Under the pieces are notes generated by a model. It ran no database searches and had not been told where the DNA came from. It was given only the letters and a program-made list of their open reading frames with translations. Below, piece by piece: positions 10,438 to 25,616 of a DNA stretch of 30,590 nucleotides. The DNA is from an archaeon (GTDB taxonomy: Archaea; Asgardarchaeota; Thorarchaeia; Thorarchaeales; Thorarchaeaceae). The DNA is taken from assembly GCA_024275415.1 (NCBI GenBank), contig JAJRZD010000003.1, positions 1 through 30,590 of the forward strand. The letters are read 5' to 3'. The translations under genes were made by a program, and so were the position numbers. How positions within the stretch are numbered: the first letter of the stretch is position 1; each line of letters starts with the position of its first letter.

Positions 10438-12437
10438 GTGCTAACCCCCGTAGTAACAACCAATGAACTTGATCCTTTTTTCCCATTGAATCGAATCTTA
10501 TATTCCTGAATAATATGAGGTGCAATGGTTTCTCGAATTGATTTGGTCATTTCGGTATTGGTGGCAAAGAGTATCAGCTGATCACATGACAGGCTTAATA
10601 GATTCTCTATAACACTTTTTCGGTGTTTTCTGTCTAGTCTTGCTAGTGGAGTGTCAACAAGCAATGGAAAGGATCTATTGGACAGTCTAAGTATCGATAA
10701 TAATAGAGCTACTGCATAGAGCTGTTTTTCCCCGGCCGATAACATCGAGCTTGCAGTATAATCGGTGTTGTTGCGGTAAAGATTGGCAGTAAGATTCTCT
10801 GCATCGATATCAACTCGTTCAATCTGCTTTGATGGCGGTCGTAAATTATTAAATACAACTTTGAACACAGATTCCAGCTCTTTGATTCTTCTCTGTAGCA
10901 GATAGTCTTCAAATTCCTGTAGCACCTCAATAGCATTTCCCGCTAGACCGGCTTTCCGAGTTTCAGAAGATTCTTTTCTGATTTGTTCGAGAATCTTGGC
11001 TTTTTCTCGTTCCTTGATTTCAATGGATTGTTCTAGAAGCTTTACCAGTTCATGGAGGGATTCAAGTTTCAATTCCTGCCGTGATAATTTTCTCGATCTT
11101 GCATTAAGTTCCTCAATCAATGGTCTGACGACCTCATCTGCTGGGACTCGTTCCAAATCTGACTTTGTTTTCACTAAGATCTCCGTCTTTTCATTCAACT
11201 CATTTACAAGTTCCTGAAGTTTAGTTGAACCGAAGTCCTGTAAATCGTCTATCAGTCTTATAAACAGATACCTTTCAGATTTACTCAGATTATGCCTAAT
11301 CTCACTTATGCTTTCAGGGGTAGTGAGCATAGACTCAAGAATGTGATTGATGCGTGTATAGATGTTGGTTCTGCGTTCCTCATCAATCTCAATATCCCAG
11401 ATGGATGCATTGCTAAATGCAGAAGCAAGTACTCCTCGAACATCTTGAATTGCCTCTTTTCGGTCTTGAAAAGCAAGAAAATCTAATTCATTCCTCAGCT
11501 GAGTCTTGAGTTTCTTAGATAAAGTTGGACAGAATGAAAATGGCAGAATTCCTTCAGCCAGTCCAGCAATATCCTTTTTTATTGATTCAATTTGGTGTTC
11601 TAGTTGGGTCACAATACGGATTTTCTTTTGCCGATCCTTTGCAAAACCAGACCCTTCTCTTGCTAGACGCTGTTCAATTTCAGATATTTTTTTCAGAGAG
11701 TCGCTGAGTCCTAACTTGATGCTTTTGATTAGTTCTTTTGTGTGTTCAATTTTCTGTGAAATTAGACCAATTTCGCTTACAACTTGTTGATACTCCTTCT
11801 GAAGGCTGCTTGATTTTGTCTTATCCAAACTGGATAGATATAGACTTACATCTTTTCGTGCCCGTTTCACCAAATCGATGCCGGTTATTGCATGGAATCC
11901 GTCTTTCAAGAGTGCATGAGAATTGGATGTTTCGGCAAATTCCTTTATTTTTTCACCATCGAAAAAAACCAGTTGTGATAAGCCAATGGGATACAAGTTG
12001 AGGAGAAACTCTTGAGGATTTGTGATAAAATCCATGTGCCCGCTCTCATCAATTACACATACTTGCAAATTCTCTGAAATCGTATCCTTCCTAATCGACC
12101 AAGACCTAGAAACTTCGATCTGATATGTACGTCCAGCTTCAGTATAGGAAAATCTTGTCTTGATTTGTGCGGTTGTGTTCCTCTTTGAGGAATCAGCATG
12201 AATTCTGTTCATTAGGTGATTTCGATAATCCTTTGAAGGCATTTTTTTTCCTGAGAAAAAAGGCCCCAGAATGCAAAGGGAGATTGCTTCGAAAAGGGTG
12301 GTTTTTCCTGAACCATTATTCCCCATAAATAGAACAACCTCAGGAGCCCTAGCAGTGTTGTTTGATGAAACAAAATCTATAATGATATCGCCTGAATATA
12401 TCCCGAAGTTGTTAAGTCTTGCCCGTAGAAGTTTCAT
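10434..12437 (-). CDS. dndD: DNA sulfur modification protein DndD (SMC/ABC-type ATPase)
   Basis: L.NFGIY, Walker A GNNGSGKTT, FFDGEKI, long coiled coil, signature LSAGEKQL, Walker B/D-loop LVDTPLARLD..HR. Confidence 0.92.
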   Translation of the reverse strand: MKLLRARLNNFGIYSGDIIIDFVSSNNTARAPEVVLFMGNNGSGKTTLFEAISLCILGPFFSGKKMPSKDYRNHLMNRIHADSSKRNTTAQIKTRFSYTEAGRTYQIEVSRSWSIRKDTISENLQVCVIDESGHMDFITNPQEFLLNLYPIGLSQLVFFDGEKIKEFAETSNSHALLKDGFHAITGIDLVKRARKDVSLYLSSLDKTKSSSLQKEYQQVVSEIGLISQKIEHTKELIKSIKLGLSDSLKKISEIEQRLAREGSGFAKDRQKKIRIVTQLEHQIESIKKDIAGLAEGILPFSFCPTLSKKLKTQLRNELDFLAFQDRKEAIQDVRGVLASAFSNASIWDIEIDEERRTNIYTRINHILESMLTTPESISEIRHNLSKSERYLFIRLIDDLQDFGSTKLQELVNELNEKTEILVKTKSDLERVPADEVVRPLIEELNARSRKLSRQELKLESLHELVKLLEQSIEIKEREKAKILEQIRKESSETRKAGLAGNAIEVLQEFEDYLLQRRIKELESVFKVVFNNLRPPSKQIERVDIDAENLTANLYRNNTDYTASSMLSAGEKQLYAVALLLSILRLSNRSFPLLVDTPLARLDRKHRKSVIENLLSLSCDQLILFATNTEMTKSIRETIAPHIIQEYKIRFNGKKGSSSLVVTTGVST

Positions 12438-13852
12438 GGATTATCCCCTGTTTCTTGTAATGCAATGAGTTCTTCCTCAGATCGCCACTCTTCAGAGAAT
12501 ATTCTATCAATCTTTTTTGCAATGTTCTTTCTTCTAGATAATCCCTGTGAAAGCGATTCCAAATCAAGTATCTTCTTGATTAGACCAACCGGAACACCAT
12601 ATTTCGTGCAAATTGAGTGAAGTTGGGACTCGTCCTCTGGATGAAATGATACAATATCATCCTTTTTCCATTCCAGGTCGGACTTCATAACATCTCTGTA
12701 TATATCTGGAAGACAGTCTTGCCAATCACTACGCTCGATTCTCCAGAGTCTTCGGATCTCGTGGAGTTCCTCATCAGATATCACTTGGAAATCAATTTGA
12801 TTTCTGACAAAGTTCCTTTGAATCTCCAGCAAATCGTGCAGGATCTTTTTACATGTTTCAAATGTGTAAGGACCACGAGCAATTGTTGTATGATCGTTAG
12901 TCTTGAAAAGGACTCGTCCATCTCGTCGCTTATAGTCTCTGAACTTGTGTTTGTTTTTTGGTTCTGTGGTTTCATAGAGGTAATCTCGTAGCACTAAAAG
13001 ATGTTCCATCCAGTCCATGCCGGAGTCAATTAGGTTTTCCATCGATTTGTCTCTAGAAACAACAGTGCATGTCCAGCACCCAAATCGGGTGTTTCCGCAA
13101 GAAGGCGTGCTTCGGTCTACAACCAAGGGACATTCACCATCTTGTGCATCGCGATATAGTGATAACAGCTGATAATTATCATCACCCCAAGGAGATTTCT
13201 GTTGAAGAAGATAGCCCCAAACATCTTCCAATGAGAATTCACTTATTGGTGCATAAACGTATGCTCCAGAAAAATTCGAGTGTGAATATAGATTCATTCT
13301 CTTTGTTTTTCGAAGGCTGAGAACTTGATCACGCGTAGCACTCTCTCCTTTTCTAACTCCGAGTACAATGATCACCTCGCCATGATATGCGATTTGATCC
13401 TCGATGAATTTATTGGAAGGTCGGATTTTCAGTCTGTCTGTACACCATCTAAACTGGCGAGTGGGCGCTGCATATCCTCGTCCTACTAAATTAACCCAGA
13501 ATGTTTGGGATCTATCCGGATATACAATTTCTATTTTGAAAGGCAATGCTTGTTCTTTGGCAGCCTTTCGCATGTTTTCGACTGACTGATGTATTCGTTT
13601 CAGGACGATAGGATTCTCAACAAGAGTGTCAGAAGTAATTACATAGACAGGCTTTGATAGATCCTTTCGAGAGAGCCTTGAAAGGGCAAGCCAAACAAAT
13701 TGCAATGTTGCAGTTGAGTCCTTTCCTCCACTGTATCCTACAATCCAAGGTCGGTTATCAGAAAGATACAGGTTTCGTATTTCATCGTAGATGCCATTAA
13801 GTCGCATTTCGTGCAACGGATAGAATGTATCCGCACCGTTATCTTCAGTCAT
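12434..13852 (-). CDS. dndC: DNA phosphorothioation sulfurtransferase DndC (PAPS-reductase family)
   Basis: PWIVGYSGGKDS, SDTLVENP, FWVNLVGRGY.AP...FRWCTDRLKI, CPLVVD..TPSCG..RFGCWTCTVV..DKSM. Confidence 0.95.
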   Translation of the reverse strand: MTEDNGADTFYPLHEMRLNGIYDEIRNLYLSDNRPWIVGYSGGKDSTATLQFVWLALSRLSRKDLSKPVYVITSDTLVENPIVLKRIHQSVENMRKAAKEQALPFKIEIVYPDRSQTFWVNLVGRGYAAPTRQFRWCTDRLKIRPSNKFIEDQIAYHGEVIIVLGVRKGESATRDQVLSLRKTKRMNLYSHSNFSGAYVYAPISEFSLEDVWGYLLQQKSPWGDDNYQLLSLYRDAQDGECPLVVDRSTPSCGNTRFGCWTCTVVSRDKSMENLIDSGMDWMEHLLVLRDYLYETTEPKNKHKFRDYKRRDGRVLFKTNDHTTIARGPYTFETCKKILHDLLEIQRNFVRNQIDFQVISDEELHEIRRLWRIERSDWQDCLPDIYRDVMKSDLEWKKDDIVSFHPEDESQLHSICTKYGVPVGLIKKILDLESLSQGLSRRKNIAKKIDRIFSEEWRSEEELIALQETGDNP

Positions 13853-14159
13853 ACAAGCATCGCCTTCCGATTATAACCAAATACCCTGCCTCTTGTATGT
13901 TTTAATAATGCTCCTTAAAGTCCTATATTACAATTAGTTGTAAGTGGACGATGTAGTTAGGTTTTTGATGGTTTCCTTTCTTTCCAGTGGTATCATCTAT
14001 ATCTGAATTGTAAAGTACTTTCCTAAGGTCAATGCATAAACCCGCAACTTAAAAATCAACACCATATCTGCAACAATGAACAGAAGTGTCGAGTACAGGG
14101 GGATCTGTGAAGAACATTTTTATTGTAGTTCGCTGGAAATCGATTGTCTTCGGTAGAGC
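13853..14159. promoter_or_regulatory. Divergent AT-rich intergenic/promoter region between the dnd and pbe-like operons
   Basis: Both operons start from this ~300-bp gap. TATA-like tracts are present (e.g. cctatatta near 13922, tttaataat), but exact elements are not resolved. Confidence 0.45.
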
Positions 14160-15968
14160 ATGGTGAGTGATATGAGTAAAGTGCTTATGGGCATGAATAC
14201 ACTCAATAATCTCCTCAAGATCGGGCTGGAAGAAATCGCATCGGACACGCTGTATTGTATGAGCTATAATGTAAATCTTGATTATGTCTTATCACTATTC
14301 GATTCATACAGTAGCCTCGAACGAGTCTTCATTTATGCAAACAATGAGATGATAAGTCACTCTGGTAGAAATACTAACCGAATTGTTGAACTTATAAATA
14401 ATGGAAATCTGCGAATCCACTATGTTTCATTAAACCGCTTATTGATCCATGCAAAAGTGTATGCATTCCATAAAGACGGAAAATGTACATTGGCAGGGGT
14501 TGGGTCTTCAAATTTCTCGTCTAAATCGAATCAAAACTTCGAAGTTATTACTGTCTTTCGAGATCCAATTCCGGACGAGCTTCCACATATTTGGAGCGAG
14601 GTTTTGTCAATGTCTAGAGGTGCGTTAAAAAAGACTGAAGGAGCACCGCCATTTGTCTATAAACGACCGCCCTCGACACTTTTTGTGGTCGATTCGAAGA
14701 TCACGGAAGGGTTATGGGAACACCAAAAGATCATTATCGATTGGCTCTCGACACGTACTAGATCCATTGTAAACATTCCGCCGGGAACAGGGAAAACAAA
14801 GATAGCACTTGTTTATGCTATGCACCTGAAAAATGTAAAACCAAACTTAGCAACCGTAATACTTGTTCCTACAAAAACGCTGATACAACAGTGGATTGGT
14901 ATTCTTCAAGATGCAGGTATGGAGGCATACGAAGGAGGTACAGACCACTCTTCACTTGCAGGATTCTTGGGTGCTCCAGAGGGGTGCTTTTTGGTTACGC
15001 TTTATAATCGGTTTTGGGATTATTCTGACTATATTCTAAGAGAGATTGCAATCATTAATGTCCCGTTTCTAATCATTGCGGATGAATGTCATCGACTATA
15101 CTCTAGACTAGACTCTCTGTTTCGCACTACTCAACAATTGGAGAATAATGGTGTCGAGTACTATCATCTCGGACTTTCTGCAACAATAGATACATTTTAT
15201 GAGAATCTTTTGGATGACTACTTGTCATACTGTGGAGGGACTGATTCGCAATTCAGCATCGAGCTTGCTCCGTTCTATTCTCAATGGAATGACAGAAATG
15301 ATTCACCCATTCTCAAGGAAGTTGAGTATTATCCGGTCTTCTGTAGATTATCGGATCAAGAGATGAAACGCTTCAAACAACTATCAAAGTATATAGCAAT
15401 CCAGTCAGGAAGCATTGATATAGATGGGAAGTCTGTAGGTAGAGCATCTATTCAGAGAGCGAGATTCGTACGGGGAACTGAAAGTGGAGTTAGGGCGCTA
15501 CGATCCCTCCTAGATGATGCGATGAGCTTGATCAACAACCAAAATACAATCATATTTGTGCAAAGGAACGAGATTGCGGAAAATATCCGTAACTATATTA
15601 CAAATCATAAACTTTGGAATCCCGATTCCTCTGCCTATGTATATGATTCTCATCAACCCGAGAGATACTTGGACTACGCAATGGAACGGTTTAGATCCAA
15701 CAAGGGATTCTGCCTTATTGCAGAGCAGATGATAGCAGAGGGATTCGATCTTCCAAGTATCGCCATGATCATTCTTCACGGGTCGCATAGATCTGAAAGA
15801 GATTGGATCCAAAAAGTTGGTAGAGCAATAAGATACGATAAAATGCGCCCTGATGATGTCGCGAAAGTATTTGATATAGTATTTTGTGATACAAATGGAA
15901 ATATCTTGGAAATGGAACAAGAAAGATATGCTACACTTACAGCAATTTCAGTGAGGAAGATCAAGTGA
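14160..15968 (+). CDS. pbeA: PbeA-like protein: PLD-family nuclease domain plus SF2 (DExH) helicase
   Basis: IHAKVY...GSSNFS (HKD-type PLD), Walker A PPGTGKT, IADECH, LSAT, EGFDLP, QKVGRAIR. First gene of a four-gene cluster beside dndCDEA, as in the archaeal Dnd-Pbe system. Confidence 0.8.
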   Translation: MVSDMSKVLMGMNTLNNLLKIGLEEIASDTLYCMSYNVNLDYVLSLFDSYSSLERVFIYANNEMISHSGRNTNRIVELINNGNLRIHYVSLNRLLIHAKVYAFHKDGKCTLAGVGSSNFSSKSNQNFEVITVFRDPIPDELPHIWSEVLSMSRGALKKTEGAPPFVYKRPPSTLFVVDSKITEGLWEHQKIIIDWLSTRTRSIVNIPPGTGKTKIALVYAMHLKNVKPNLATVILVPTKTLIQQWIGILQDAGMEAYEGGTDHSSLAGFLGAPEGCFLVTLYNRFWDYSDYILREIAIINVPFLIIADECHRLYSRLDSLFRTTQQLENNGVEYYHLGLSATIDTFYENLLDDYLSYCGGTDSQFSIELAPFYSQWNDRNDSPILKEVEYYPVFCRLSDQEMKRFKQLSKYIAIQSGSIDIDGKSVGRASIQRARFVRGTESGVRALRSLLDDAMSLINNQNTIIFVQRNEIAENIRNYITNHKLWNPDSSAYVYDSHQPERYLDYAMERFRSNKGFCLIAEQMIAEGFDLPSIAMIILHGSHRSERDWIQKVGRAIRYDKMRPDDVAKVFDIVFCDTNGNILEMEQERYATLTAISVRKIK

Positions 15969-16141
15969 CAGCCGACAAGATCGATATCCAACAGGAAATC
16001 GAAATAATATTGGAACGTGAGTTTGGATCTATGTTAGAATCTTTGTCTGAAAATCCTCTCTTCGAGATTGTCAAGTCAGGCGAGATTAAGGACATGACAC
16101 TTGATGATGTAAAGAAAAAAGTCCTTGGGAGACGCTCATAA
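15965..16141 (+). CDS. Small acidic 58-aa protein, PbeB position (not in ORF track)
   Basis: GTG 15965 overlaps the pbeA stop (GTGA) and its TAA overlaps the next ATG (TAATG). Translation: MTADKIDIQQEIEIILEREFGSMLESLSENPLFEIVKSGEIKDMTLDDVKKKVLGRRS. Confidence 0.7.
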   Translation: MTADKIDIQQEIEIILEREFGSMLESLSENPLFEIVKSGEIKDMTLDDVKKKVLGRRS

Positions 16142-18018
16142 TGAGTATCAGATTCCTCTCAATAACTGTTTCAGGGTATCGCGGGAGACACTTCAAGCTA
16201 GATATGGGCGACGAAGAGCATTCAGTTTTTGTGATGGATGGCAACACAGGCAAAACAACCACGATCGAGCTTCTTAGATGGTGCTTCCGATTTAAGGAAA
16301 GCGATGCCAAGTACAAATTCAGACATATGTGGGCGGATCCAGCCCATATTCTCGATTTCGAGGTTGAAGGCAAACAGAAATGCTTGATCGAGATTCAATT
16401 CAAGGATGATAAGGGAAACCATTACAAGTTTATTCGCGAAACAATTGGAGAACATGATAGAACAAGATCAGGTGATAAAAAAACACGGGGGGATATCATA
16501 TTCAGCATAAGGGATACACTTGAGATCAATCGAGGGAAACCGGTACTACAAGGAGATAAAGTAAACGAATTCCTTAACGCGCAGTTTAGGCTTGGAGTAT
16601 CTGCTGATTACTTCTGCTTTGATGGTGAAAAGGCCAGAGAAATGATAAGGATGGCCACCTCTGAAGTACAACGGTTGATTGACCTTATCAGACAGCGTAC
16701 AACACACTCGCTAGTTCAGCTGTATCTCAGGAGGCTTGACGACCTACGCGATAACTTGTTGACCCAATCATCAGTCACACTAACTGATCGAGTTCAAAGA
16801 TCATTGAAAAAAAAGCTGGAATCAAAAAAATTCGAGCTTGCATCTCATAATGATGAGATCGATAGACTAAATGATGGAATATTTGTTTACGAACAGGAGG
16901 TAGACAAGCTTGATGATGAGATAAGAAACCTCACTGAGAAAATAAGATCTGCAGAATCAGATACGATTAGACGAAAAGCGGTTCTTGAACATGAACTAAT
17001 TATTTCGAAGAAGCAAATCGAACAGATGAGAGGAGAGGTCTACAAAAACTGCAGAATATGGATGGAACCACAAAACCATCACCTGGTAATGCAGATTAAG
17101 GAGCTGGTTCGCGAACGAGGGCGTTTTCCGGACCCATATCACACGGATCTCATCACTGAATGTTTGAAAGATCCTCCCATATGTCAGATTTGTGGTAGAC
17201 CTCTAGATTCTAAATCCATAGAACGAGTCAAGAAACTTGGTATGCAGATAGCACCACATGAAGTTCAAACATTTCTAACTTCCGAGGTTGTTTCGGAGGA
17301 CAGTAATTATGATGTAGTAGAAATCCGAAGAAAGATACAATCTGAAGTCCAGAAGCTGAAACGGATTGAAAATGAGTATCAAAGGATTTCTCTAAGCAAA
17401 GAAGATGAGGATTTATTCGAGGAACGAGCTGAAAAGGCAAGACAACGGGAGGAGTTCAATGGCAAGCTCATTGAAAGTCGTTCATACCTAAAAGATGCAT
17501 TGGACTATAAAGCTATTCTTGAGCACGAAGTTGAGCAGATAATTCAAAAGAGTGATGCCTTTAAGAAGAACAAACCTCTACTTGACGAAATCGAAAGATT
17601 AGAGATTGCTCTTAATGAGGCCCATGACAGAATGAGAGCAAGAACCATAGAAGTAATAGGAGAAGTCATTTCGAGAGCAGCTTCCAGCATCCTTGGAAAA
17701 GAATTTACCGCAAAGCTCTCTGAAAAAGACGGACTGATGTTAGGCGAAAAGGGATTTTATAGTGCTGAGATTGGAGGGTATTCAGGACGCCTTATCCTGT
17801 CATATCTCTTTGCAGAAGCCATGAGCCAGGTAAGTCCTATCATCATAGATACCCCAGTAGGAAATGTAGGGACTCATAGACCTGCTTTGGCAGAACACTT
17901 GGCAAATAATCACTCACAAGTTATTCTTCTATGTCTCCCAACAGAGCTTGGGGGTTTTGCAGAGAAGTTTGCAAAGCCAGCGAAATTCAAAACCATAAAA
18001 AACCAACCGAGAGAATAG
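16141..18018 (+). CDS. pbeC: PbeC-like SMC/Rad50-type ATPase (DndD paralog) with a zinc-hook CxxC
   Basis: Walker A DGNTGKTTT, YFCFDGEKA, coiled coils flanking CQICGRPL, Walker B IIIDTPVG. Confidence 0.8.
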   Translation: MSIRFLSITVSGYRGRHFKLDMGDEEHSVFVMDGNTGKTTTIELLRWCFRFKESDAKYKFRHMWADPAHILDFEVEGKQKCLIEIQFKDDKGNHYKFIRETIGEHDRTRSGDKKTRGDIIFSIRDTLEINRGKPVLQGDKVNEFLNAQFRLGVSADYFCFDGEKAREMIRMATSEVQRLIDLIRQRTTHSLVQLYLRRLDDLRDNLLTQSSVTLTDRVQRSLKKKLESKKFELASHNDEIDRLNDGIFVYEQEVDKLDDEIRNLTEKIRSAESDTIRRKAVLEHELIISKKQIEQMRGEVYKNCRIWMEPQNHHLVMQIKELVRERGRFPDPYHTDLITECLKDPPICQICGRPLDSKSIERVKKLGMQIAPHEVQTFLTSEVVSEDSNYDVVEIRRKIQSEVQKLKRIENEYQRISLSKEDEDLFEERAEKARQREEFNGKLIESRSYLKDALDYKAILEHEVEQIIQKSDAFKKNKPLLDEIERLEIALNEAHDRMRARTIEVIGEVISRAASSILGKEFTAKLSEKDGLMLGEKGFYSAEIGGYSGRLILSYLFAEAMSQVSPIIIDTPVGNVGTHRPALAEHLANNHSQVILLCLPTELGGFAEKFAKPAKFKTIKNQPRE

Positions 18019-18020
18019 AC

Positions 18021-18611
18021 ATGCGATTAACAGGTAATGTAAGTATGCCAATGGAATTAGTTGAACTCCTCAAGGTTAGAGAGAAGAAAGTTAGACAAGA
18101 AGACGTCGAGTCCAACTCTGAGGATTATTTATCACACATCCCTCGCCTTGCGGATATCCTTCTTATGTGTGTTTTCTATGGTTTCTATAGGGCAAAAGAA
18201 TTACCATCGTCGGTCAATACGAATGATATGGGATCTTACGAGTTCAATGTAAGAATTGATAAAGAAGCATCTCGTCTTAGGCATGCACTCTTGATGATAT
18301 GGATAAGGGAAAATAGAGAACTACTCTGGGGTTCTAAAGATGAGTTTCGCCTCAAATTGTACGATTTTCTAAAAGACATTTTAGACGATTCATACTTGAT
18401 TCAGGTTATCTTTCCGTTCTACCTTTCTAAATCTGCAGAACCTTATGGCGATGTATCATTTATTAAAAGGCTTGAAAGAAGTAGATTCGTGGAATGGGAA
18501 ATGAAACAGCATGCGCCCGAGAGAATCGCTATCGAATTCGTGTCTCGGATGCGCGAGTTCGAAGAATGGCTTGCTAAGTCACTAGAGGAAATAAGTGAAA
18601 CATTCGAATAG
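18021..18611 (+). CDS. PbeD-position protein, DndE-like pattern
   Basis: ATG 18021, 2 nt after the pbeC stop (track start 17931 overlaps pbeC). Shares LP...EFN...ALL spacing with the DndE in this window. Confidence 0.65.
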   Translation: MRLTGNVSMPMELVELLKVREKKVRQEDVESNSEDYLSHIPRLADILLMCVFYGFYRAKELPSSVNTNDMGSYEFNVRIDKEASRLRHALLMIWIRENRELLWGSKDEFRLKLYDFLKDILDDSYLIQVIFPFYLSKSAEPYGDVSFIKRLERSRFVEWEMKQHAPERIAIEFVSRMREFEEWLAKSLEEISETFE

Positions 18612-18856
18612 CATTCATACTTGATTAAATGGGCCTGTTCGTGACGATATACCGTTTTTGTGAAACAGGTTCGAACTCGAGTAGTAAGATAACTGGCATT
18701 ATACGTAAGATCAGAACCTTCTTGAATAGATACAATGAGAACGGATGATGACATGTTTGGATTATCATACTACTGCAATAAATGGAGGTTATTGCAATAA
18801 ATCATTCATCTACACGAATCTCAATGTGTAAGGTAACAAAACATTTGAAACAAGTG

Positions 18857-19769
18857 GGAGTCACAGGAGATCATCACATGTAAATGCGATCAGAATAATG
18901 ATCTCCATGACTCGTCGAGAACGAATTGTGAAGTATTCTCTTAAGAGATCTGTGACTACCGCCTCCATGGTCTTCAGTCTTTCGAGATTCTCCGTCTATC
19001 CTTGGCGCAAGGCATACTCCGAAGGAGGGCAAGAGGGCCTGCGACCCAGGTTCACCGCACCTCACAGTCCAAGAACCGTCCTCACCGACGAGCTCCTACA
19101 CAGGATCCTTGCACACAGGAAACTGGGGTATGGTTCTTTGAAGACCAAGGCTCTGTCGAGGAGGGAAGGTATCAATGTTTTTCACATGACGGTCTACTGT
19201 TTCCTGAACGGCAGCGGTTTCGTGAGATCCCAGAAACAGAGGAGGAAACACAACAGGGCATGGCCATGGAAGAGGCGGAACGAGCTGTGGCAGCTGGACT
19301 TCAAGGGCCCCTACCAGAGGAGTGGTAGGATCCTGTGGAGGTCGGACATAGTGGACGATGCGAGCGGGTTGTTGGTCGCAAGTGTGGAGTGTGAGAGTGC
19401 CAGTTCCAAGGTGATCCTGGACACCATGAGGGCTGCGGTGAAGAGGTACGGGATGCCCCTTCAGGCACTGGCAGACAAAGGTGCGGTGTCTGTGAGAGGA
19501 GGGGTGTGTGCTTTCCACAGGTGGTGCATAGAGGACAGGGTACAACATATCCGGGTCAGGAGAAACCAGACCCCGAGGAAGGTGGAGCGGATTCACCGGA
19601 CGATACAGGAGGAGCGCGAGCGGATGGGGAAGGGACTGGACGAATATCACAACAGGGAACGTCCTCACTCGCCCCTGGGATACAAGCCACTCTGGGATCT
19701 GTACGACACTCCAAGGAGGTATGGAGCACCATGTTAAAAAGGAGGCTGTCCTACATCTCCTGTGATTCC
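18857..19769 (+). mobile_element. IS481-family insertion sequence (probably decayed)
   Basis: Transposase ORF flanked by a 15-bp inverted repeat with 14/15 identity (ggagtcacaggagat 18857-18871; atctcctgtgattcc 19755-19769). GC-richer than its neighbours. Exact ends are uncertain. Confidence 0.65.
18898..19737 (+). CDS. IS481-family DDE transposase (HTH + rve integrase core)
   Basis: ELWQLDFKGP (D1), IVDDASG, LADKG (D2), KVERIHRTIQEE (E), YH...RPHS.LGYK. Confidence 0.85.
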   Translation: MISMTRRERIVKYSLKRSVTTASMVFSLSRFSVYPWRKAYSEGGQEGLRPRFTAPHSPRTVLTDELLHRILAHRKLGYGSLKTKALSRREGINVFHMTVYCFLNGSGFVRSQKQRRKHNRAWPWKRRNELWQLDFKGPYQRSGRILWRSDIVDDASGLLVASVECESASSKVILDTMRAAVKRYGMPLQALADKGAVSVRGGVCAFHRWCIEDRVQHIRVRRNQTPRKVERIHRTIQEERERMGKGLDEYHNRERPHSPLGYKPLWDLYDTPRRYGAPC

Positions 19770-19870
19770 TCAAACAGGAAAACAGAAGAGAAAAACTAAA
19801 ATCCACAATGTGGGACACTACTGTATCACTAGTAGGGTGACAAGGATAAAGAGGTAGGATAGTAGGTTCA

Positions 19871-21766
19871 ATGGCACTTGGTGGAAATGAAAAAGAATAT
19901 GCTGAATCAATGGAATATTGGAAGAAACAAAGTCAAGGTGCCCAAAAGATAATTCTAAGATCTCTTGCAGAAAATGAGTGGCAAATTGACGAAATAATAC
20001 CAAGATGGGGAGATTGGTTGGAACATGTGCCTTTGAGCTTTCTTAAAATGGAGCATAAGCGTCTAGAGTTAACACCAAAATGCACTGAGGAACACCTTGA
20101 AGAAGAAATTGATGCTACACCGCTGAAAAACACCCTAGAGAAGTTGAGCGAACAATGTGCAATAGGTGAAGCATTCGCCGAGCTTGTTGATAACATATTT
20201 GATAATTTTGAGAGAAAAGGAAAACCATCAGGTCAAGAATCAATACAGATAACGTTCTATTTCAGTTCGGACAATGAAGATGGTTTTAGTGAGATTATTC
20301 TTAAAGAGAACAGTGGAGGAGTAGCACGTGAAGAGCTAATCCCGCTTGTACGACTAGGGGATTCTGCTGTCGCCGAGTCCACATCAATTGGTGCATGGGG
20401 ACAGGGATCTAAGATTGCTTGCTTTGTAATTGCTGATAGCATCGACATTTTCACTTATCATTCAGGTGATACACCAATATGTATAAGATTCCCTAATGGA
20501 TGGTTGAAGAAGAGTAGTCCATATTACAGAACATGGGATGTTAAGGTCTATCGTGCAGAGGATATGGAAGAAGGAACAACCATTTTCAAGTTTCAGAATT
20601 TAAAAACGAGAGCGCAAAAAGCAGACCTGGATGAAATAGCAAGGTATCTAGGAAGAATATACTCCTTTAGACTCGAATCTTATGCTGAAGAGGGTATTGA
20701 TGTCAAAGTTACTTTGGAGGACTTGCTTGGAGATAGAGTGATACAGATAACCCCTTCTTTTACTTTGAAGACTCTTGAAGAAAGACACGAGTTTTTGTGG
20801 ATGCCAGATTATTCTCCTGTTCAGATTGAACATTCGCTCCGGAGTTCAGATCAATATGGTCGAGAAATCGAGGTAGATCTAATCATGGTTGTTGGCATTC
20901 TGCGGCATGGAAGCAGGGATTTGGGTGGTGTATACATGTATGGCAATGATAGATTGTTTACTCCAAATCCAATCCAAGACGGCATAATTGGCATAGGAGT
21001 GCAAGTTCCTGGAAAACGAAGTCGCATAAGAAAATATGGGCCTCCATTATACCGTCTAGTAGCATTATTATTCTTTAAATGCAAACCGGGACAAGCCGAA
21101 TTCATACCATGGGCCGCACCATTGAAGAACCGATATAATCCTAATAATATCTTCCATGATGAGATATTGAATATCGTATATCATGTTATTTTTCCATATA
21201 GTCAAATTTGCGAAGGAGTCATTGAAACGCAACTTGACTTCTTTTCAAGCAAGTGGCTCTCGATGGATGCTAGTGCCCGATTGGAAAAACTAAGAAGATA
21301 TTTCCAGGAGGTTGAAGATGATTTCCTTAGGAGTGTCGCAGAAACTCACTCCTTTGACAATGATTTGGATCAAATTCCGCACTATGGCTTTGAATCAATA
21401 AAGGCCAGTACCAACCTACCTTTTGGATTAAACAAAGCAAGCAAGATAAAGGATTTTCTCAAGAAAGTTAATGATAATAGTTTTGATCTAGAACCAAAGG
21501 ATTTTCTGATTGGATTCTTCTCAAAATCTATAAACGAGGTTTTTGAATCCACAAATTTCGGTTTGACTGAGGCTCCAGATCCTGCCCACCTGAATTATGA
21601 CTTCATAGCGAAGCGTGTAACTGAAGCGAGCGCTGTTTTTGAAACTGCAACGCTAAGTCTTAGTATTGACAATAAAGAGAAGCTCCTTAAGAAACTTGGG
21701 CTTCCAGATGATACATCAGCAACAGAAATAGCGAAGGTACTCATATCAAAAGAACTGGGAGAGTAA
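19871..21766 (+). CDS. MORC-like GHKL (HATPase_c) ATPase with S5-fold domain
   Basis: GHKL motif I AFAELVDNIFD, motif II ENSGGV, motif III IGAWGQGSKIA, motif IV GTT, and the S5-like GVYMYGNDRLF. About 80-aa N-terminal extension. Confidence 0.8.
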   Translation: MALGGNEKEYAESMEYWKKQSQGAQKIILRSLAENEWQIDEIIPRWGDWLEHVPLSFLKMEHKRLELTPKCTEEHLEEEIDATPLKNTLEKLSEQCAIGEAFAELVDNIFDNFERKGKPSGQESIQITFYFSSDNEDGFSEIILKENSGGVAREELIPLVRLGDSAVAESTSIGAWGQGSKIACFVIADSIDIFTYHSGDTPICIRFPNGWLKKSSPYYRTWDVKVYRAEDMEEGTTIFKFQNLKTRAQKADLDEIARYLGRIYSFRLESYAEEGIDVKVTLEDLLGDRVIQITPSFTLKTLEERHEFLWMPDYSPVQIEHSLRSSDQYGREIEVDLIMVVGILRHGSRDLGGVYMYGNDRLFTPNPIQDGIIGIGVQVPGKRSRIRKYGPPLYRLVALLFFKCKPGQAEFIPWAAPLKNRYNPNNIFHDEILNIVYHVIFPYSQICEGVIETQLDFFSSKWLSMDASARLEKLRRYFQEVEDDFLRSVAETHSFDNDLDQIPHYGFESIKASTNLPFGLNKASKIKDFLKKVNDNSFDLEPKDFLIGFFSKSINEVFESTNFGLTEAPDPAHLNYDFIAKRVTEASAVFETATLSLSIDNKEKLLKKLGLPDDTSATEIAKVLISKELGE

Positions 21767-21772
21767 GGCTCA

Positions 21773-22273
21773 TTGCGCCTTAGAACTATTTCTGGGAATG
21801 AAATGATATCGCAAGTCTACAAATCGTTTTCTGCATTAAGGGGTCATCCTTGGTTGAAAACAGAAAGTGACATCAAGTGTGCGCTCTACACAGCATTATA
21901 TAACCGCCTATGTGCCAGAATTGGGAACCTGTCTAGTTGTGAATGGAACATCATAACAGAATATCCGATTTCAAATAGTGCATTCATTGACTTCGCTTTA
22001 TTTAGAAATGAAAATCTATTCTTGCTAATCGAATTGAAATATATAAAGAAAATTAATGAAAAAGAAATACAACGAGTCGAAGATGATTTTCAGAAACGGC
22101 GGCAATATGTAATTGATAACTCGGTCAGATTTCTTCAATTGATCGTAAGCAAGGAAAACAGTCAGTTCAAAACCGAGCTTACAACAATAATGAAAGAACA
22201 TTTCCAAGGTCTGTATGCGCCCAAGCTTTCCAAGGTGGGTGCAGATATTTCTATTCTATATATTAATTACTGA
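21773..22273 (+). CDS. PD-(D/E)XK-family nuclease
   Basis: TESDIK helix, ITEYP, FIDFAL, LIELK motifs. Starts 6 nt after the GHKL stop (TTG; alternative ATG ~21802). Confidence 0.7.
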   Translation: MRLRTISGNEMISQVYKSFSALRGHPWLKTESDIKCALYTALYNRLCARIGNLSSCEWNIITEYPISNSAFIDFALFRNENLFLLIELKYIKKINEKEIQRVEDDFQKRRQYVIDNSVRFLQLIVSKENSQFKTELTTIMKEHFQGLYAPKLSKVGADISILYINY

Positions 22274-22488
22274 GGCTCTGTGGAAAAAGTCCATTATCCG
22301 ATATTTGAAGTGTTAATTTTCGAGTCAGATTCCTTCAGGGCGTCAGATTTTTCACATTATCCAAGGTTCGAATGTGATTTTTCATTTCTTCGCTCGACTT
22401 ATTCCACAGAGCCTACGATTTGGGTAAATTCCTATCATTCCCGGGAAAATCTAGCTAATTGAGGGTGTGTACCGCCTTGATTAACTGA

Positions 22489-22710
22489 CACTTTGATAAT
22501 TCCCATCGAATCGTCAGAAACATATTGCTCCCAAAGTCGAACACCGAGGACTGGAATACGAAATTCGAGGGAAATGTGGCGCGTGATGAAAAGAAACGGC
22601 AGGCGCTCGAGGATATGGGTTGGAAAGTATTCACCATCTGGGAATGCGAGGTGAAGGAAGACCCCCTCGGTGCTGCAATGAGAGTGAGGGCATATATTGA
22701 CCAGATGTGA
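22489..22710 (+). pseudogene. vsr: Very-short-patch repair endonuclease (Vsr) C-terminal remnant
   Basis: PKSNTEDWNTKFEGNVARDEKKRQALEDMGWKVFTIWECEVK matches the Vsr C-terminus. The frame is closed by TGA at 22486-22488 and no N-terminal catalytic half is visible. Confidence 0.75.
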
Positions 22711-23135: not shown

Positions 23136-23486
23136 TTATCCACAACATCCGCTGCTCGTGTTGTCGCATCCAGAATCCGTCGCACATGCCTCATCTTCCG
23201 AACCGGCGCCCACATCCGAGTCCTTTGTCCTGGATAGCATCCGGGCAATCTGGTTCCAGATGCACCCGCAGCCGAAGTTCGTGACAGAGATAGCGTCGCC
23301 CAGACAGTTCTTAGCACAGGCAGTGCAGTTCGTGCAGTCCTCAGGACGAGCCATCATCGCAGCACCGCGCTCTGGCAGTTCCCAGACATTGAAAGGGCAC
23401 ACCTCTACGCACATCCCGCACCTGTTACATGCCGAGGGGTCGTAGATCACATCGGTCCGTTGTTCTTGAGTAACGACTGTCATCAT
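23136..23486 (-). CDS. hgcB: HgcB-like 2[4Fe-4S] ferredoxin with Cys-rich tail
   Basis: CNRCGMCVEVCP and CTNCTACAKNC cluster motifs, AISV..FGCGC (HgcB GVGC position), C-terminal GCCG. ATG lies 1 nt after the hgcA-like stop. Confidence 0.75.
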   Translation of the reverse strand: MMTVVTQEQRTDVIYDPSACNRCGMCVEVCPFNVWELPERGAAMMARPEDCTNCTACAKNCLGDAISVTNFGCGCIWNQIARMLSRTKDSDVGAGSEDEACATDSGCDNTSSGCCG

Positions 23487-23487
23487 A

Positions 23488-25212
23488 TCACCATCCGAAT
23501 AGGAACACAAGCACATTGAACGCGACGAGGAAGGCTGCTCCCAGTATCAGTGTCAGCAACATATAGGGATACTCTGCCCTTATGGATTTCGGGTCGCTCA
23601 CCGAGGTCATCCCTGCGAAGTCCATGGTCAGCGTGATTGAGAGGATGAACTGAACAGCCACCCAGTTGACCACCACTGTCCAAGGTGCGCCAAGGAATAG
23701 CAGGGTAAGCAGTGCCGCAGGAACCGTGAGCACAGCGAAGCCGGCCCCCCGTCTAAGGAACGAGTTCTCACGAGATGGGAGGATTGGGAATAATATGCCT
23801 AGGAGAAGGGCATTGGCAAGCAATGCGAACACGAACTGGAACAGCAAGAAGAGCAACGATATGCTTGGCTCAAAGGTCAATAGGAACAGGTCTTGGAGAA
23901 AGATGTAGAAGAACGAGTTCGCGGCAAGGAGTCCTACGAGTAGCACAGCCAGTGGTTTCCACAAGAGGACGGCGAACAGGAACGGGATGTGGGCGACCGT
24001 CATCTCCATCCGCTCTCGCAGGTTGAAGGTCACTGTGGACATTTCCCGAGGCTTCGGTCGCGGTTTGCCAAGCTGTAGCCATTGCGAAAGGTCTTTGATC
24101 CTGACCGGACCATACCGGACTCGAAAACCAGTCCTTTCCTTTATCTCTCGCGGATCCATCCCCGCAGCTGAAAGCTGTGGCAGTATCAACTCGCGGTGAT
24201 TCACGACCTCATTCAGCCCAGTGAGCCTGATCATATGGACGAGGTCGTCGCTATCGAAGTGGGTGCCGCGTGCTGCACACCAGACATTGATGCCATCGGT
24301 ATCGCACACAAGCACCCATGCATCGACACCATCCCTTGCCAACGTACGCATGACAGTGTAGTAGGTCAGCTCATAATTGGCGGTCACTATGACCGGACTG
24401 TCAGCATCAGGCGCCCCAGCCCTGTACAGTCCCGGTTGGACAGTAATACCTCTCCAACTACCAGTAAGATGATTGTACCATATCCTACCTCTTGCTTTCA
24501 CACCATGAAAGGCACGCTCAGGGAATCGGTGTGGGTTGCTAGGCGCGTGTTCACCTTTCCTCCCGACGATGAAAGTTATCTCAGGACCGTACATCTCGCT
24601 CAGCTCGACCTCTAGTCCTGAACCACTGATGATTTGCTCCAGATTGACGACTGGCGGTGGAAGGCGCCTTCCAGACTCTTTTTCCGCCTTCCGTCGATTT
24701 CTCCAGAATATCCTTCTGTCAGACCGGCCCAGCGGGAGTGTTTCCGAGGCGACCGCAAATATGCCATCCTTCTTCAGGTGACTCCTTATGATGCGCATGA
24801 GCAGGTATCTCTCGGACGGTTTCAGCTCGGACAGAAGGAACGTACTCACGATGAGGTCGTACTTATCTTGCACATTGGTCGATTCGCTACCAGCCTTGTC
24901 CTGCTCCTCGCCTAATCGAAGGATGTCCTGATGGATGAAGTTTGGCAGGTCACCCCCTTCCGGATCCCGCGTCTTTGCGAATGCAATCATGTCCTTATCA
25001 GCGTCGATGGCATCGACAAGTGCACCTTTCTTCGATGCCTCAAGTGCGAATAGTCCGGGCCCGCAGCCGATATCCAACACCTTCATTCCGGGTGTCACAT
25101 AGTCGAGAATCCTCTCCCGAATCCTTGCTGCTCTTCCGCCGAGTACATGGTCAAATGAGTGATCGTATATTTCAGGCGTATCCTCAAGTGCGATCATGAA
25201 TGAAACAGCCAT
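23488..25212 (-). CDS. hgcA: Class I SAM-dependent methyltransferase fused to an HgcA-like corrinoid-binding membrane protein
   Basis: Residues ~1-220: VLDIGCGPG, IDAD..M, YDLIVSTFLLSEL. Then VQPGLY..G.PDADSPVIVTANY, DTDGINVWCAARG, LILPQLSAAG, GFRVRYGPVRI.DL, VTFNLRERM, 4-5 TM helices, and MDFAGMTSVSD..SIRAE (HgcA C-terminal motif position). Confidence 0.8.
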   Translation of the reverse strand: MAVSFMIALEDTPEIYDHSFDHVLGGRAARIRERILDYVTPGMKVLDIGCGPGLFALEASKKGALVDAIDADKDMIAFAKTRDPEGGDLPNFIHQDILRLGEEQDKAGSESTNVQDKYDLIVSTFLLSELKPSERYLLMRIIRSHLKKDGIFAVASETLPLGRSDRRIFWRNRRKAEKESGRRLPPPVVNLEQIISGSGLEVELSEMYGPEITFIVGRKGEHAPSNPHRFPERAFHGVKARGRIWYNHLTGSWRGITVQPGLYRAGAPDADSPVIVTANYELTYYTVMRTLARDGVDAWVLVCDTDGINVWCAARGTHFDSDDLVHMIRLTGLNEVVNHRELILPQLSAAGMDPREIKERTGFRVRYGPVRIKDLSQWLQLGKPRPKPREMSTVTFNLRERMEMTVAHIPFLFAVLLWKPLAVLLVGLLAANSFFYIFLQDLFLLTFEPSISLLFLLFQFVFALLANALLLGILFPILPSRENSFLRRGAGFAVLTVPAALLTLLFLGAPWTVVVNWVAVQFILSITLTMDFAGMTSVSDPKSIRAEYPYMLLTLILGAAFLVAFNVLVFLFGW

Positions 25213-25214: not shown

Positions 25215-25607
25215 TCAGTTCTCCACAAGTAAATCAATGAGATGAAGCAGTGAGTCCTTCCTCTTCTCAGAAAGGGTGTAATACGTCCACCTTCCACGAC
25301 GCTCGCCAACAATCCATCCTGCCTCCTTCAGTTTCCGAAGGTGGTGCGAGATCAATGGTTGCCGAGTTTCATTCAACGCGGCCTGGAACTCGCAGACACA
25401 TGCCTCGCCGATCATTAAAAGGAACAAGATGATGCCTGTGCGTATCCCTGCGGTGAATATGTCGCCACCAAGTGAGGTGAAAGAATCGCTGAACGACTGG
25501 ATGAGCTCACGACGCCTCTCATAAGGCACACAGCAAGGGGCCTTCTCAGGGGATTCCTTACAGAACCTATGAAGATTCTCAAGACGTTCGATATGCTCTT
25601 GGTTCAT
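25215..25607 (-). CDS. ArsR/SmtB-family metalloregulator
   Basis: GEACVCEF (alpha3 CxC), ISHHLRKLKEAG, ERRGRWTYY, plus an N-terminal C...CC. ATG 25607 preferred over GTG 25616; ends 2 nt before the hgcA-fusion ATG. Confidence 0.85.
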   Translation of the reverse strand: MNQEHIERLENLHRFCKESPEKAPCCVPYERRRELIQSFSDSFTSLGGDIFTAGIRTGIILFLLMIGEACVCEFQAALNETRQPLISHHLRKLKEAGWIVGERRGRWTYYTLSEKRKDSLLHLIDLLVEN

Positions 25608-25616
25608 GTGTGTCAC

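Follow-up and report, generated by a model that had tools for sequence, protein, structure and literature searches.

The question raised by this locus is what an Asgard archaeon does with a single gene that joins a class I SAM methyltransferase to a membrane-embedded corrinoid protein resembling HgcA, and it has to be answered in steps: whether the gene is real, to which families its parts belong, and what the encoded protein may methylate. The window, that is, the whole stretch of DNA that was analysed, is 30,590 nt long, and an initial annotation had described in it an uninterrupted 574-aa ORF from a probable Asgard archaeon, with a methyltransferase joined in frame to an HgcA-like corrinoid protein. 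The Asgard host is borne out, and ORF, Pfam and NCBIfam analyses confirm the joined frame at 23488-25212, which has to be placed on the minus strand; a plus-strand reading was rejected since it is broken by many stops throughout the frame. The gene and its parts are as follows.

23488-25212, minus strand: the whole fusion gene P0001, 574 aa, consisting of methyltransferase, linker, corrinoid-binding domain and a domain of five transmembrane helices (stop codon at 23488-23490)
24538-25212, minus strand: CpaM-like class I SAM methyltransferase domain, aa 1-225 (Pfam, NF043040, invariant columns, Foldseek, tree)
24463-24537, minus strand: structured and conserved linker, aa 226-250 (invariant columns; AlphaFold2 helix at aa 238-249)
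24058-24462, minus strand: HgcA-type corrinoid-binding domain, aa 251-385 (PF03599, 80.6 bits; PDB and structural matches)
24265-24294, minus strand: cap helix GINVWCAARG, aa 307-316 (Cys312 codon at 24277-24279; motif census)
23491-24030, minus strand: transmembrane domain, aa 395-574 (AlphaFold2 secondary structure and hydropathy)

The fusion junction is genuine, neither an assembly chimera nor a missed stop, because the same architecture recurs, over 95-100% of the query length, in more than 100 protein clusters (90% identity) from independent contigs and because residues of the linker are conserved (G237 invariant, R243 and I244 near-invariant, in 63 homologues). Each cluster that bears a name comes from Asgard archaea, and the contigs, drawn from NCBI, JGI, ENA and Logan, include ones of 0.57 and 3.16 Mb. 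Set against this repetition of the full-length architecture in independent assemblies, the conserved linker and a confident AlphaFold2 full-chain model (pLDDT 83.9, pTM 0.79), the idea that a chimera, frameshift or missed stop produced the fusion is vanishingly improbable, and the corresponding worry of the initial annotation can be set aside. The fusion is not the singular find for which it had been taken: it is common in Asgard genomes, some 548-aa fused proteins already carry the PGAP label 'CpaM', and NCBIfam names already couple the methyltransferase with the corrinoid protein. Judged from sequence, it is a variant form of a catalogued module whose biochemistry is putative.

Pfam places Methyltransf_23/25/11 domains at aa 24-175 of the fusion, with SAM motif I reading VLDIGCGPG (aa 45-53). 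Among the 63 full-length homologues, G51, G53, the acidic D70, T124, F125, S128 and E129 are invariant, as are L9, E10, P13, Y16 and F20 of the N-terminal helix. CpaM (NF043040) is the best methyltransferase family for the fusion, ∼23 orders of magnitude in E-value ahead of the next, BchM (E = 2e-10), and the CpaM-like character suggested in the initial annotation is thus borne out, though the score of 114.1 bits lies below the cut-off of 180 and genuine CpaM proteins reach 211-286 bits in a genome search. That search, run with the family model, is how stand-alone CpaM genes were found, a domain query of a word-indexed database having given mostly truncated fragments. Like members of CpaM, the fusion has a class I SAM methyltransferase with intact SAM-binding motifs and an HgcA-type corrinoid protein adjoining or fused to it; in the methyltransferase tree its domain is the sister clade of the CpaM group, and its sequence marks it as a CpaM relative. 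An ArsM identity was rejected, the ArsM-family models giving weak, generic matches only. A literature search found no paper on CpaM together with a corrinoid protein and none on an N-terminal methyltransferase domain in HgcA-like proteins; such a domain may have stood in the first 327 alignment columns, which were trimmed by Lin et al. (2023).

Foldseek relates the methyltransferase domain to small-molecule class I methyltransferases, and its nearest solved folds are small-molecule and lipid enzymes, e.g., phosphoethanolamine and phosphatidylethanolamine N-methyltransferases. This resemblance speaks for a reading in which the protein methylates an organic substrate at the membrane (a lipid, cofactor or natural product), or else acts in the reductive dehalogenation of halomethanes, with the neighbouring ArsR serving as a sensor of something other than a metal; a preprint that reports dechlorination of CCl4 by HgcAB adds a precedent for other corrinoid chemistry (10.64898/2026.04.26.720869). 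The gene neighbourhood, described below, weighs on the other side.

The second half of the protein matches Pfam CdhD/PF03599 at aa 256-374 (80.6 bits). Its top PDB sequence matches are the B12 domains of CFeSP large subunits (2h9a and 4c1n, E = 1.8e-13), and its top structural match is the deposited HgcAB integrative model 9a0b_A, at 33% identity over 320 columns. The cap helix GINVWCAARG, including Cys312, the cobalt ligand predicted from sequence, is invariant across the 63 full-length homologues and has RG where the canonical helix has GK. Five transmembrane helices follow at about aa 405-435, 442-476, 488-508, 511-533 and 546-574 in the AlphaFold2 model, with which hydropathy agrees. The homologous B12-binding domain (PF03599) is shared with CdhE/AcsC, the CFeSP large subunit of the Wood-Ljungdahl pathway, of which the fusion matches only the C-terminal B12 domain and lacks the N-terminal 4Fe-4S or TIM-barrel part. 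A CdhE identity was rejected because the fusion scores 97.3 bits on NF003195, over the B12 domain only, against a cut-off of 306, because contig C112, away from this locus, encodes a true CdhE/ACDS gamma subunit (558.6 bits), and because the outgroup branch is well separated; the clustering with CdhE that the initial annotation had named as fatal to its proposal does not appear in the tree.

The fusion gene stands between two small genes, in the order arsR / fusion / hgcB-like.

25215-25616, minus strand: ArsR/SmtB-family metalloregulator P0122, 133 aa (Pfam HTH_5; NCBIfam HTH_metalloreg, 57.1 bits, cut-off 55)
23136-23516, minus strand: HgcB-like 2x[4Fe-4S] ferredoxin P0121 (NF040864 HgcB, 57 bits, cut-off 99; Fer4 families)

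The stop codon of P0122 lies 2 nt ahead of the fusion ATG, and the protein has ACVCE in its predicted DNA-binding helix region as well as N-terminal Cys residues (FCK...APCC). The probable start of P0121 is the ATG at 23484-23486, 1 nt past the fusion stop, and the protein contains CX2CX2CX3C twice as well as GCGCIW, and its Cys-rich tail terminates in CCG. Neighbours were counted in 27 Asgard loci from related genomes, so that the counts are not independent. A separate HgcB-like homologue, whose motif is of the GCGC(I/L)W type and whose C-terminal tail carries CC or CxC, lies immediately downstream in all 27, and the 'self-contained' machine of the initial annotation accordingly has to be widened to take in this constant partner. 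An ArsR orthologue that keeps the CVC motif stands immediately upstream in five of the seven loci of the Thor-type clade, to which the fusion belongs; in the Thor-type loci L008 and L010 the ORFs upstream of the fusion match no family, and hence no ArsR is present. Neither arsR nor acr3 occurs in two Thor-type loci and in the T3 loci (four of four). Of the 16 Loki-type loci, which make up the sister clade, 10 have an ACR3-like permease immediately upstream (264.8 bits on TIGR00832, cut-off 282.8) and 11 a divergent ArsR. No acr3 adjoins the operon in the 30,590-nt window; the source genome carries a canonical Acr3 (416.7 bits) and no ArsM above the cut-off of 263 (best 80.4 bits). ArsR/SmtB regulators as a family sense many different ligands. 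ArsR and acr3 neighbours have also been reported for canonical hgcAB (PMC7438021), and the hgcAB regulator of ND132 responds to S-adenosylhomocysteine and arsenic (10.1101/2022.10.17.512643).

These neighbours bear on the organic-substrate or dehalogenation reading: the genes conserved around the 27 Asgard loci include ArsR and ACR3-like ones but none for biosynthesis, and soft metal(loid)s are suggested both by the ferredoxin tail and by ArsR, each of them rich in Cys, while dehalogenation would have no need of a SAM methyltransferase. That reading is accordingly considered improbable.

As to family membership of the HgcA-like half, Cys312 corresponds to the cobalt-ligand Cys of HgcA (Cys93 of ND132), the corrinoid domain is followed by five transmembrane helices, and the adjoining HgcB-type ferredoxin ends in a Cys pair, though its 57 bits compare with an HgcB cut-off of 99. 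The fusion operon thus shares with HgcA/HgcB of Pseudodesulfovibrio mercurii ND132 a corrinoid domain with Cys ligand, five transmembrane helices, a partner ferredoxin with C-terminal Cys and an upstream ArsR-type regulator; it differs in that the canonical form has no methyltransferase domain, has a cap helix ending in GK and falls in a different clade. The fusion is, by sequence, not a canonical HgcA because its scores lie below the cut-offs, its cap motif is not an accepted one and its clade is separate. It reaches 205.2 bits on HgcA NF040863 (HgcA_corrinoid; model positions 28-321 of 325; cut-off 275) and 219.4 bits on HgcAB_like NF043039 (model positions 11-280 of 350; cut-off 285), where a true HgcAB-like member, L006, scores 397.6 bits. 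NVWCAARG, invariant in the fusion clade, is absent from the six accepted cap-helix motifs, which are tied to confirmed methylators (PMC10087281). A tree of the corrinoid and transmembrane domains, which gives four solid clades with no supported order among them, puts the fusion in a clade of its own (100% support), apart from canonical HgcA (99%) and from the ferredoxin-fused HgcAB-like proteins; it replaces an earlier tree, built from 138 columns and 197 rows of just the corrinoid domain, which was poorly resolved, with a basal split of 78-79%. Of the 'HgcA-like protein' in the initial annotation, the corrinoid domain, the Cys and the five helices therefore stand, and canonical HgcA status does not. 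Its remark that characterised HgcA proteins have no methyltransferase domain fits the sampling of GK-motif sequences, none of which carries one (107 in the non-redundant set), and two sampled canonical HgcA loci have no methyltransferase neighbour.

The same findings bear on whether the protein is a true mercury methylase, that is, a working HgcA that incorporates a SAM-binding domain, by which the organism would make methylmercury. The HgcA-like part, transmembrane domain included, aligns to canonical HgcA representatives over query positions 13-317 at 36-39% identity and scores 205 bits on NF040863; the Cys ligand and HgcB features (C-terminal CC) are kept, and the reported ArsR/acr3 neighbours of canonical hgcAB are compatible with such a role (PMC7438021). 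Nevertheless, the score lies below 275 bits, the cap motif falls outside the six of confirmed methylators (PMC10087281), the clade is separated from the canonical one with 99-100% support, and, as indirect evidence, all tested organisms with fused HgcAB-like proteins, which form a different clade, made no methylmercury (PMC4646819; PMC10087281). Mercury methylation by this protein is hence judged quite unlikely.

The closest relative among described systems is the pair of CpaM (NF043040) and HgcAB-like (NF043039) proteins, the 'fused HgcAB' of Podar 2015, Capo 2022 and Lin 2023. It consists of three modules in the order seen here, has a conserved NVWC cap helix with no GK after it, as here, and is likewise frequent among Asgard archaea, one of which, the cultured Promethearchaeum syntrophicum MK-D1, has it in the split form. 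As in HgcAB-like proteins, the corrinoid protein has a CpaM-type methyltransferase partner, here fused at the N-terminus; unlike them, P0001 has no CX2CX2CX3C motif, the ferredoxin being a separate downstream gene, which is the reverse of the type arrangement. The fusion also scores under both cut-offs, and its methyltransferase and corrinoid parts each form their own clade with 100% support. Its transmembrane domain is nearer to canonical HgcA, most ferredoxin-fused representatives aligning over about the first 160-200 query positions (the corrinoid domain) only.

Across these systems, the three modules form an obligate association whose order is constant in split, pair-fused and triple-fused Asgard forms. 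They occur as three separate genes in L007, as cpaM adjoining a ferredoxin-fused hgcAB-like gene in L005, L006, L011 and L012, as a methyltransferase-HgcA fusion with separate hgcB in L001, L008, L010 and 20 more loci, and as triple fusions of 597-668 aa in L003, L004 and L009. In the sampled metagenomic ferredoxin-fused representatives, a methyltransferase of ∼220 aa lies directly upstream in three of three, with a 4-nt gene overlap in two. The methyltransferase and corrinoid trees recover the same clades (THOR 100, LOKI 99-100, T3 95-98, ferredoxin-associated 96-99). A split-chain model of the methyltransferase (aa 1-232) against the HgcA part (aa 245-574), with SAM included and cobalamin left out, gave an ipSAE of 0.64, the best of three controls giving 0.00; this level is attained in 58 of 80 solved complexes and in 2 of 110 mismatched pairs, counts that are only a rough guide here, where a custom alignment and a ligand went into the model. 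Three runs share at least 95% of contacts, with partner pLDDT of at least 79. D304 and D306, which immediately precede the cap helix, belong to the predicted interface, as do methyltransferase residues 131-140, just past the conserved post-β4 loop, and linker residues 226-232; the methyltransferase is thus predicted to dock on the corrinoid domain, although some contact is unsurprising between chains that stem from one polypeptide. With split, pair-fused and triple-fused forms in constant order, matching trees and a docked model, the Rosetta-stone logic of the initial annotation holds.

Such a contact would fit equally well a module for reactivation, in which the methyltransferase domain, like the AdoMet domain of MetH, would use SAM and a ferredoxin electron only to rescue Co(II), the routine methyl donor being another, e.g., Wood-Ljungdahl methyl-pterin or a methylated substrate. 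In MetH, SAM and reduced flavodoxin remethylate cob(II)alamin, flavodoxin being the carrier used for repair. The activation cycle of MetH resembles the fusion system in its logic, since SAM binding and B12 binding are combined with a low-potential electron carrier and domains are fused on one chain; it differs in the fold of its SAM domain, which is unrelated to class I methyltransferases (textbook knowledge), in using SAM for repair only, and in having neither membrane domain nor Cys ligand. This analogy may indicate a possible way of working and not family membership. The CdhE/ACDS gamma subunit in the genome (558.6 bits) means that methyl-pterin chemistry is present, and a low-potential ferredoxin is co-encoded in 27 of 27 loci. 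Conversely, the conserved neighbours of the operon in the 27 loci include neither a methyl-pterin-binding gene (MeTr/MtrH-like) nor one for a substrate methyltransferase, and SAM is the turnover donor in the sole characterised relative (PMC11588087). A role restricted to reactivation is therefore regarded as unlikely, if somewhat less so than mercury methylation or an organic substrate.

The reading favoured here is that the fusion is probably a SAM-to-cobalamin methyl loader that feeds the methylation of a thiophilic metalloid. The operon arsR / cpaM-like::hgcA-like / hgcB-like would encode a membrane-anchored, cobalamin-dependent methyl-transfer machine, in which the HgcB-like ferredoxin would bring the corrinoid of the HgcA-like domain to the Co(I) state, the fused methyltransferase would bind SAM and methylate Co(I) to methyl-Co(III) with Cys312 as lower ligand, and the methyl group would pass at the membrane domain to a thiophilic metal(loid) held by the Cys-rich tail of the ferredoxin. 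ArsR, with its Cys sites, would switch the operon on upon exposure to that metal(loid). The direction of methyl flow, the action of the methyltransferase in each turnover and the identity of the acceptor are what we infer, the acceptor being most likely As(III) or Sb(III) rather than Hg(II). In purified HgcAB, methyl-Co(III) with a Cys ligand arises from SAM, so that SAM as methyl donor of HgcAB, which the initial annotation had taken as established, is indeed published (PMC11588087), and SAM is likely the methyl source in both ND132 HgcAB and the fusion operon. Canonical HgcAB, however, lacks a methyltransferase domain and yet obtains its methyl group from SAM (PMC11588087), which means that the chemistry does not demand a loader and that the domain may have another role.

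A more specific form of the loader proposal takes the Asgard fusions and their HgcB-like ferredoxins to be a cobalamin-dependent, ArsM-independent arsenite/antimonite methylase, in which SAM would load methyl-Co(III) via the fused domain, HgcAB-like delivery would carry the methyl group to thiol-bound As(III), and ACR3-like export would follow; this stronger claim is put forward tentatively and is clearly less probable than the loader itself. ArsM methylates As(III) straight from SAM, which leaves the benefit of a cobalamin relay unexplained. In ars operons, ArsM resembles the fusion as a class I SAM methyltransferase in an ArsR-controlled context with ACR3 beside it (as in the sister clade); it differs in having no cobalamin/ferredoxin relay, and the fusion has no ArsM-level score and no identified Cys triad.

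For surveys of hgcA, the consequence is practical. Fusion-type genes pass a moderate HMM threshold (≥100 bits) yet lack an accepted cap-helix motif, and because of this missing motif they should be left out of counts of mercury methylators from sediment metagenomes, in which Asgard archaea abound. For the family, SAM as the methyl donor of HgcAB was shown in 2024, unexpectedly, and sister clades with a dedicated SAM methyltransferase, separate or fused, offer a natural experiment on corrinoid loading, of which the in-frame fusions should be the easiest form for expression and structural study. The tight ArsR/ACR3-like linkage of the Asgard clades makes a role in arsenic or antimony metabolism directly testable. 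If the arsenite/antimonite proposal is true, the operon would constitute a second, mechanistically distinct route for biological arsenic methylation, and would hint that the methylation of metalloids, not of mercury, was the ancestral job of the HgcA superfamily.

The initial annotation had given the fusion ORF as 23488-25212 and left its strand unstated; the ORF itself holds, and translation places it on the minus strand as a single 574-aa frame (P0001), the plus strand over the same interval containing many stops. It is flanked by two genes with which it forms an operon:

25215-25616, minus strand: ArsR/SmtB regulator (P0122), directly upstream of the fusion, its stop 2 nt before the fusion ATG (HTH_metalloreg, 57.1 bits, cut-off 55)
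23488-25212, minus strand: methyltransferase-HgcA-like fusion (P0001)
23136-23516, minus strand: 2x[4Fe-4S] ferredoxin (P0121), directly downstream of the fusion (top NCBIfam match HgcB, 57 bits, cut-off 99)

P0122 carries an ACVCE motif and N-terminal Cys residues, and the ferredoxin ends in the tail ...SSGCCG. The ferredoxin start is likely the ATG at 23484-23486, 1 nt past the fusion stop, which is consistent with orthologue alignments. Upstream of arsR, at a distance of 159 bp and in the same orientation, is a PAS/HATPase sensor histidine kinase (25776-26948, minus strand), with no response regulator seen adjoining it. A low-GC block at 7500-22500 (38-45% vs 48-53% in the flanks), which encodes an rve-type integrase (18898-19737) as well as a GHKL ATPase (19871-21766), stops just short of the operon, whose own composition is flank-like; this puts the operon on the border of a probable foreign island.

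In P0001, Pfam matches class I methyltransferase domains to aa 24-175, and CdhD (PF03599) to aa 256-374. Its three top NCBIfam matches each stay under the model's cut-off: HgcAB_like, which describes a ferredoxin-fused HgcA relative (NF043039; 219.4 bits, cut-off 285), HgcA_corrinoid (NF040863; 205.2 bits over model positions 28-321 of 325, cut-off 275), and CpaM, the corrinoid protein-associated methyltransferase (NF043040; 114.1 bits, cut-off 180). An AlphaFold2 model built on an alignment of 63 homologues is confident (mean pLDDT 83.9, pTM 0.79) and comprises a Rossmann-type methyltransferase, a structured linker, a B12 domain and five long C-terminal helices, in agreement with the five transmembrane segments found by hydropathy. 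Within the PDB library its closest structural counterpart is the HgcAB integrative model 9a0b_A (33% identity, 320 columns), and the methyltransferase part resembles generic small-molecule class I methyltransferases. An assembly artefact as the origin of the fusion is effectively ruled out by recurrence across independent assemblies and by the conserved linker: more than 100 clusters at 90% identity, drawn from NCBI, JGI, ENA and Logan assemblies, share the Pfam architecture at 95-100% query coverage, some of the genes lie on contigs of 0.57 and 3.16 Mb, and the linker contains invariant or near-invariant residues. All clusters with a named source come from Asgard archaea (Thor-, Sif-, Loki-, Hod-, Hermod-, Odin-, Heimdall- or Promethearchaeota).

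A tree of the corrinoid and transmembrane domains (78 rows, 321 columns, LG+C20, rooted on Asgard CdhE) gives four groups without a resolved order among them: the Thor-type clade including P0001 (100% support), the Loki-type methyltransferase-fused clade (100%), canonical HgcA with the ...GK cap helix (99%), and a joint group (89%) of ferredoxin-fused HgcAB-like proteins (99%) and the methyltransferase-fused T3 clade. Clustering with CdhE, named at the outset as a refuting case, is not what the tree shows: the corrinoid domain falls well inside the HgcA superfamily and far from CdhE. The true CdhE of this genome (ACDS/CODH gamma subunit, 558.6 bits) is encoded on another contig (G000:C112:30690-32075), and this Wood-Ljungdahl corrinoid protein is thus present separately from the fusion. 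The cap-helix signatures are NVWCAARG(I/T/V)H in Thor-type, NVWCAARG(N/D/G)x in Loki-type and NVWCAAGKGT in canonical proteins; P0001 therefore fails the high-stringency HgcA test of the hgcA survey consensus protocol, which accepts only six ...GK motifs (PMC10087281). One database protein of 4450 aa, P0131, aligns with the HgcA-like query over 38 distinct segments (28% identity); it may be either a giant protein built of repeats or the product of a faulty concatenation.

A tree of the methyltransferase domain recovers matching clades (Thor-type 100, Loki-type 99, T3 and relatives 98, CpaM proteins of the ferredoxin-fused group 96), from which it follows that the two modules diversified together. 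Among 151 Asgard genomes scanned with the CpaM model, with loci then fetched and domain-scanned, the three modules occur in four arrangements of constant order (methyltransferase, corrinoid/transmembrane, ferredoxin):

Arrangements of the three modules in Asgard loci
(a) stand-alone cpaM, above cut-off, adjoining a ferredoxin-fused HgcAB-like gene: L005, L006 (CpaM 282 bits, HgcAB_like 397.6 bits), L011, L012
(b) three separate genes: L007
(c) triple fusions of 597-668 aa: L003, L004, L009
(d) methyltransferase-HgcA fusion with separate hgcB: the window and 26 more loci

Arrangement (d) was counted by ORF length and score in about 27 of the 151 genomes, 23 of them confirmed by domain scan. One genome of the window's family (G134) holds three paralogous systems: split (L007), methyltransferase-HgcA-fused (L008) and triple-fused (L009). 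In both trees the ferredoxin clade mixes triple-fused with split forms, a sign that fusion or fission happened more than once. Outside the 151-genome set, a methyltransferase of ~220 aa lies directly upstream in all three sampled ferredoxin-fused metagenome representatives, overlapping the fused gene by 4 nt in two of them. No methyltransferase domain was tallied among canonical ...GK sequences, and no methyltransferase neighbour was found at the two canonical hgcA loci sampled.

To predict contact between the modules, two pieces of the chain were modelled as separate partners, aa 1-232 for the methyltransferase and aa 245-574 for the HgcA-like part, using slices of the 63-row alignment, with SAM present and cobalamin absent. 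The pair scored 0.64 and the best of three controls 0.00; of 80 solved complexes 58 attain this mark, as do 2 of 110 mismatched pairs, a rough calibration here given that a custom alignment and a ligand were supplied. Three runs shared at least 95% of contacts, with partner pLDDT of at least 79, and since no similar complex is among solved structures, the result is unlikely to reflect memorisation. The model supports, short of demonstrating, binding between the two parts, with the proviso that the pieces belong to one natural chain. The predicted interface involves residues 98-108, 131-140, 183-186 and 226-232 of the methyltransferase and, on the corrinoid side, 259-264, D304/D306 just ahead of the cap helix, 322-336 and 360-362. 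Residues 131-140 directly follow an invariant T124-F125-x-x-S128-E129 loop. The corresponding loop lines the acceptor cleft in class I methyltransferases.

The favoured interpretation is a three-step relay under ArsR control, which we regard as reasonably probable overall. The ferredoxin would reduce the corrinoid to Co(I); the fused CpaM-like domain would then move the SAM methyl group to give a Cys-ligated methyl-Co(III); and the methyl would pass at the membrane domain to a thiophilic metal(loid) held on the ferredoxin Cys tail. The second step is suggested by modules that have fused repeatedly and whose trees match, by a SAM site that is intact, by the contact in the model, and by HgcAB, where cobalamin methylation from SAM has a precedent (PMC11588087). 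A strict need for such a loader is weakened by canonical HgcAB, which in purified form works with SAM although it has no methyltransferase domain (PMC11588087). The main rival, a MetH-like repair role for the domain, is judged unlikely.

The metal(loid) step is drawn from genomic context, surveyed at 27 distinct methyltransferase-HgcA fusion loci whose counts, coming from related genomes, reflect within-clade conservation and not independent events. An HgcB-like gene with two cluster motifs follows the fusion in all 27, with GCGC(I/L/V/M)(W/S/G) soon after the second cluster in 26 (GCRC in L034); every C-terminal tail carries Cys and ends in CC, CxC or one lone Cys; the motif and tail mirror Cys73 and Cys94/95, listed as important in HgcB (PMC11588087). 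In 5 of 7 Thor-type loci an ArsR gene with a conserved ACVCE motif immediately precedes the fusion on the same strand. Among the 16 Loki-type loci, an ACR3-like permease is directly upstream on the same strand in 10, a divergently transcribed ArsR occurs in 11 (contig ends cut two more loci), and a DUF166 gene in 5. The fusion in this clade lies in an ars-like cluster (L030-L046, e.g., L030:1554-5998) in the order divergent arsR, DUF166, ACR3-like permease, methyltransferase::hgcA-like, hgcB-like. This permease aligns over its full length to TIGR00832 with the PCTAM Cys conserved (264.8 bits, cut-off 282.8) and may be a specialised paralogue. All three neighbours are absent from the four T3 loci. 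The Loki-type locus L045 has DUF166 and an additional class I methyltransferase ORF (5930-6742, 271 codons stop to stop, weakly matching the fused domain) upstream of the fusion, where ArsR/ACR3 would stand. The window's genome encodes a canonical Acr3 at another locus (416.7 bits) and no ArsM above cut-off.

For canonical hgcAB, ArsR and acr3/arsC neighbours have been reported (PMC7438021; 10.1101/2022.10.17.512643), so the arsenic-gene link looks like a shared superfamily trait, one that is especially tight in the Asgard fused clades. A metagenomic canonical (GK-motif) hgcA-hgcB pair (L053/L054:2303-3353), preceded by a C_GCAxxG_C_C protein and followed by an SBF-family (ACR3/BASS-type) transporter, echoes the setting reported for canonical hgcAB. 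On this context As(III)/Sb(III) would rank above Hg(II) as acceptor; true Hg methylation appears improbable, and an organic-substrate or dehalogenation chemistry is held to be a similarly long shot.

The partnership of methyltransferase and corrinoid protein is already embodied in the NCBI family names CpaM and HgcAB-like, and some 548-aa fused Hodarchaeales proteins are labelled 'CpaM' by PGAP. Asgard sequences were assigned to the 'fused HgcAB' section of an HgcA tree whose N-terminal columns had been trimmed (Lin et al., 2023; PMC10083202), and a literature search found no description of CpaM, of the methyltransferase domain or of how the fused clades are linked to ACR3. P0001 represents a distinct clade confined to Asgard archaea, scoring under the cut-offs of all three models, with methyltransferase fused and ferredoxin separate; it is a variant of a catalogued, common module of putative function. 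The fusion is relevant to the part that SAM has recently been found to play in HgcAB, and its arsenic linkage makes the native function of the HgcA superfamily testable.
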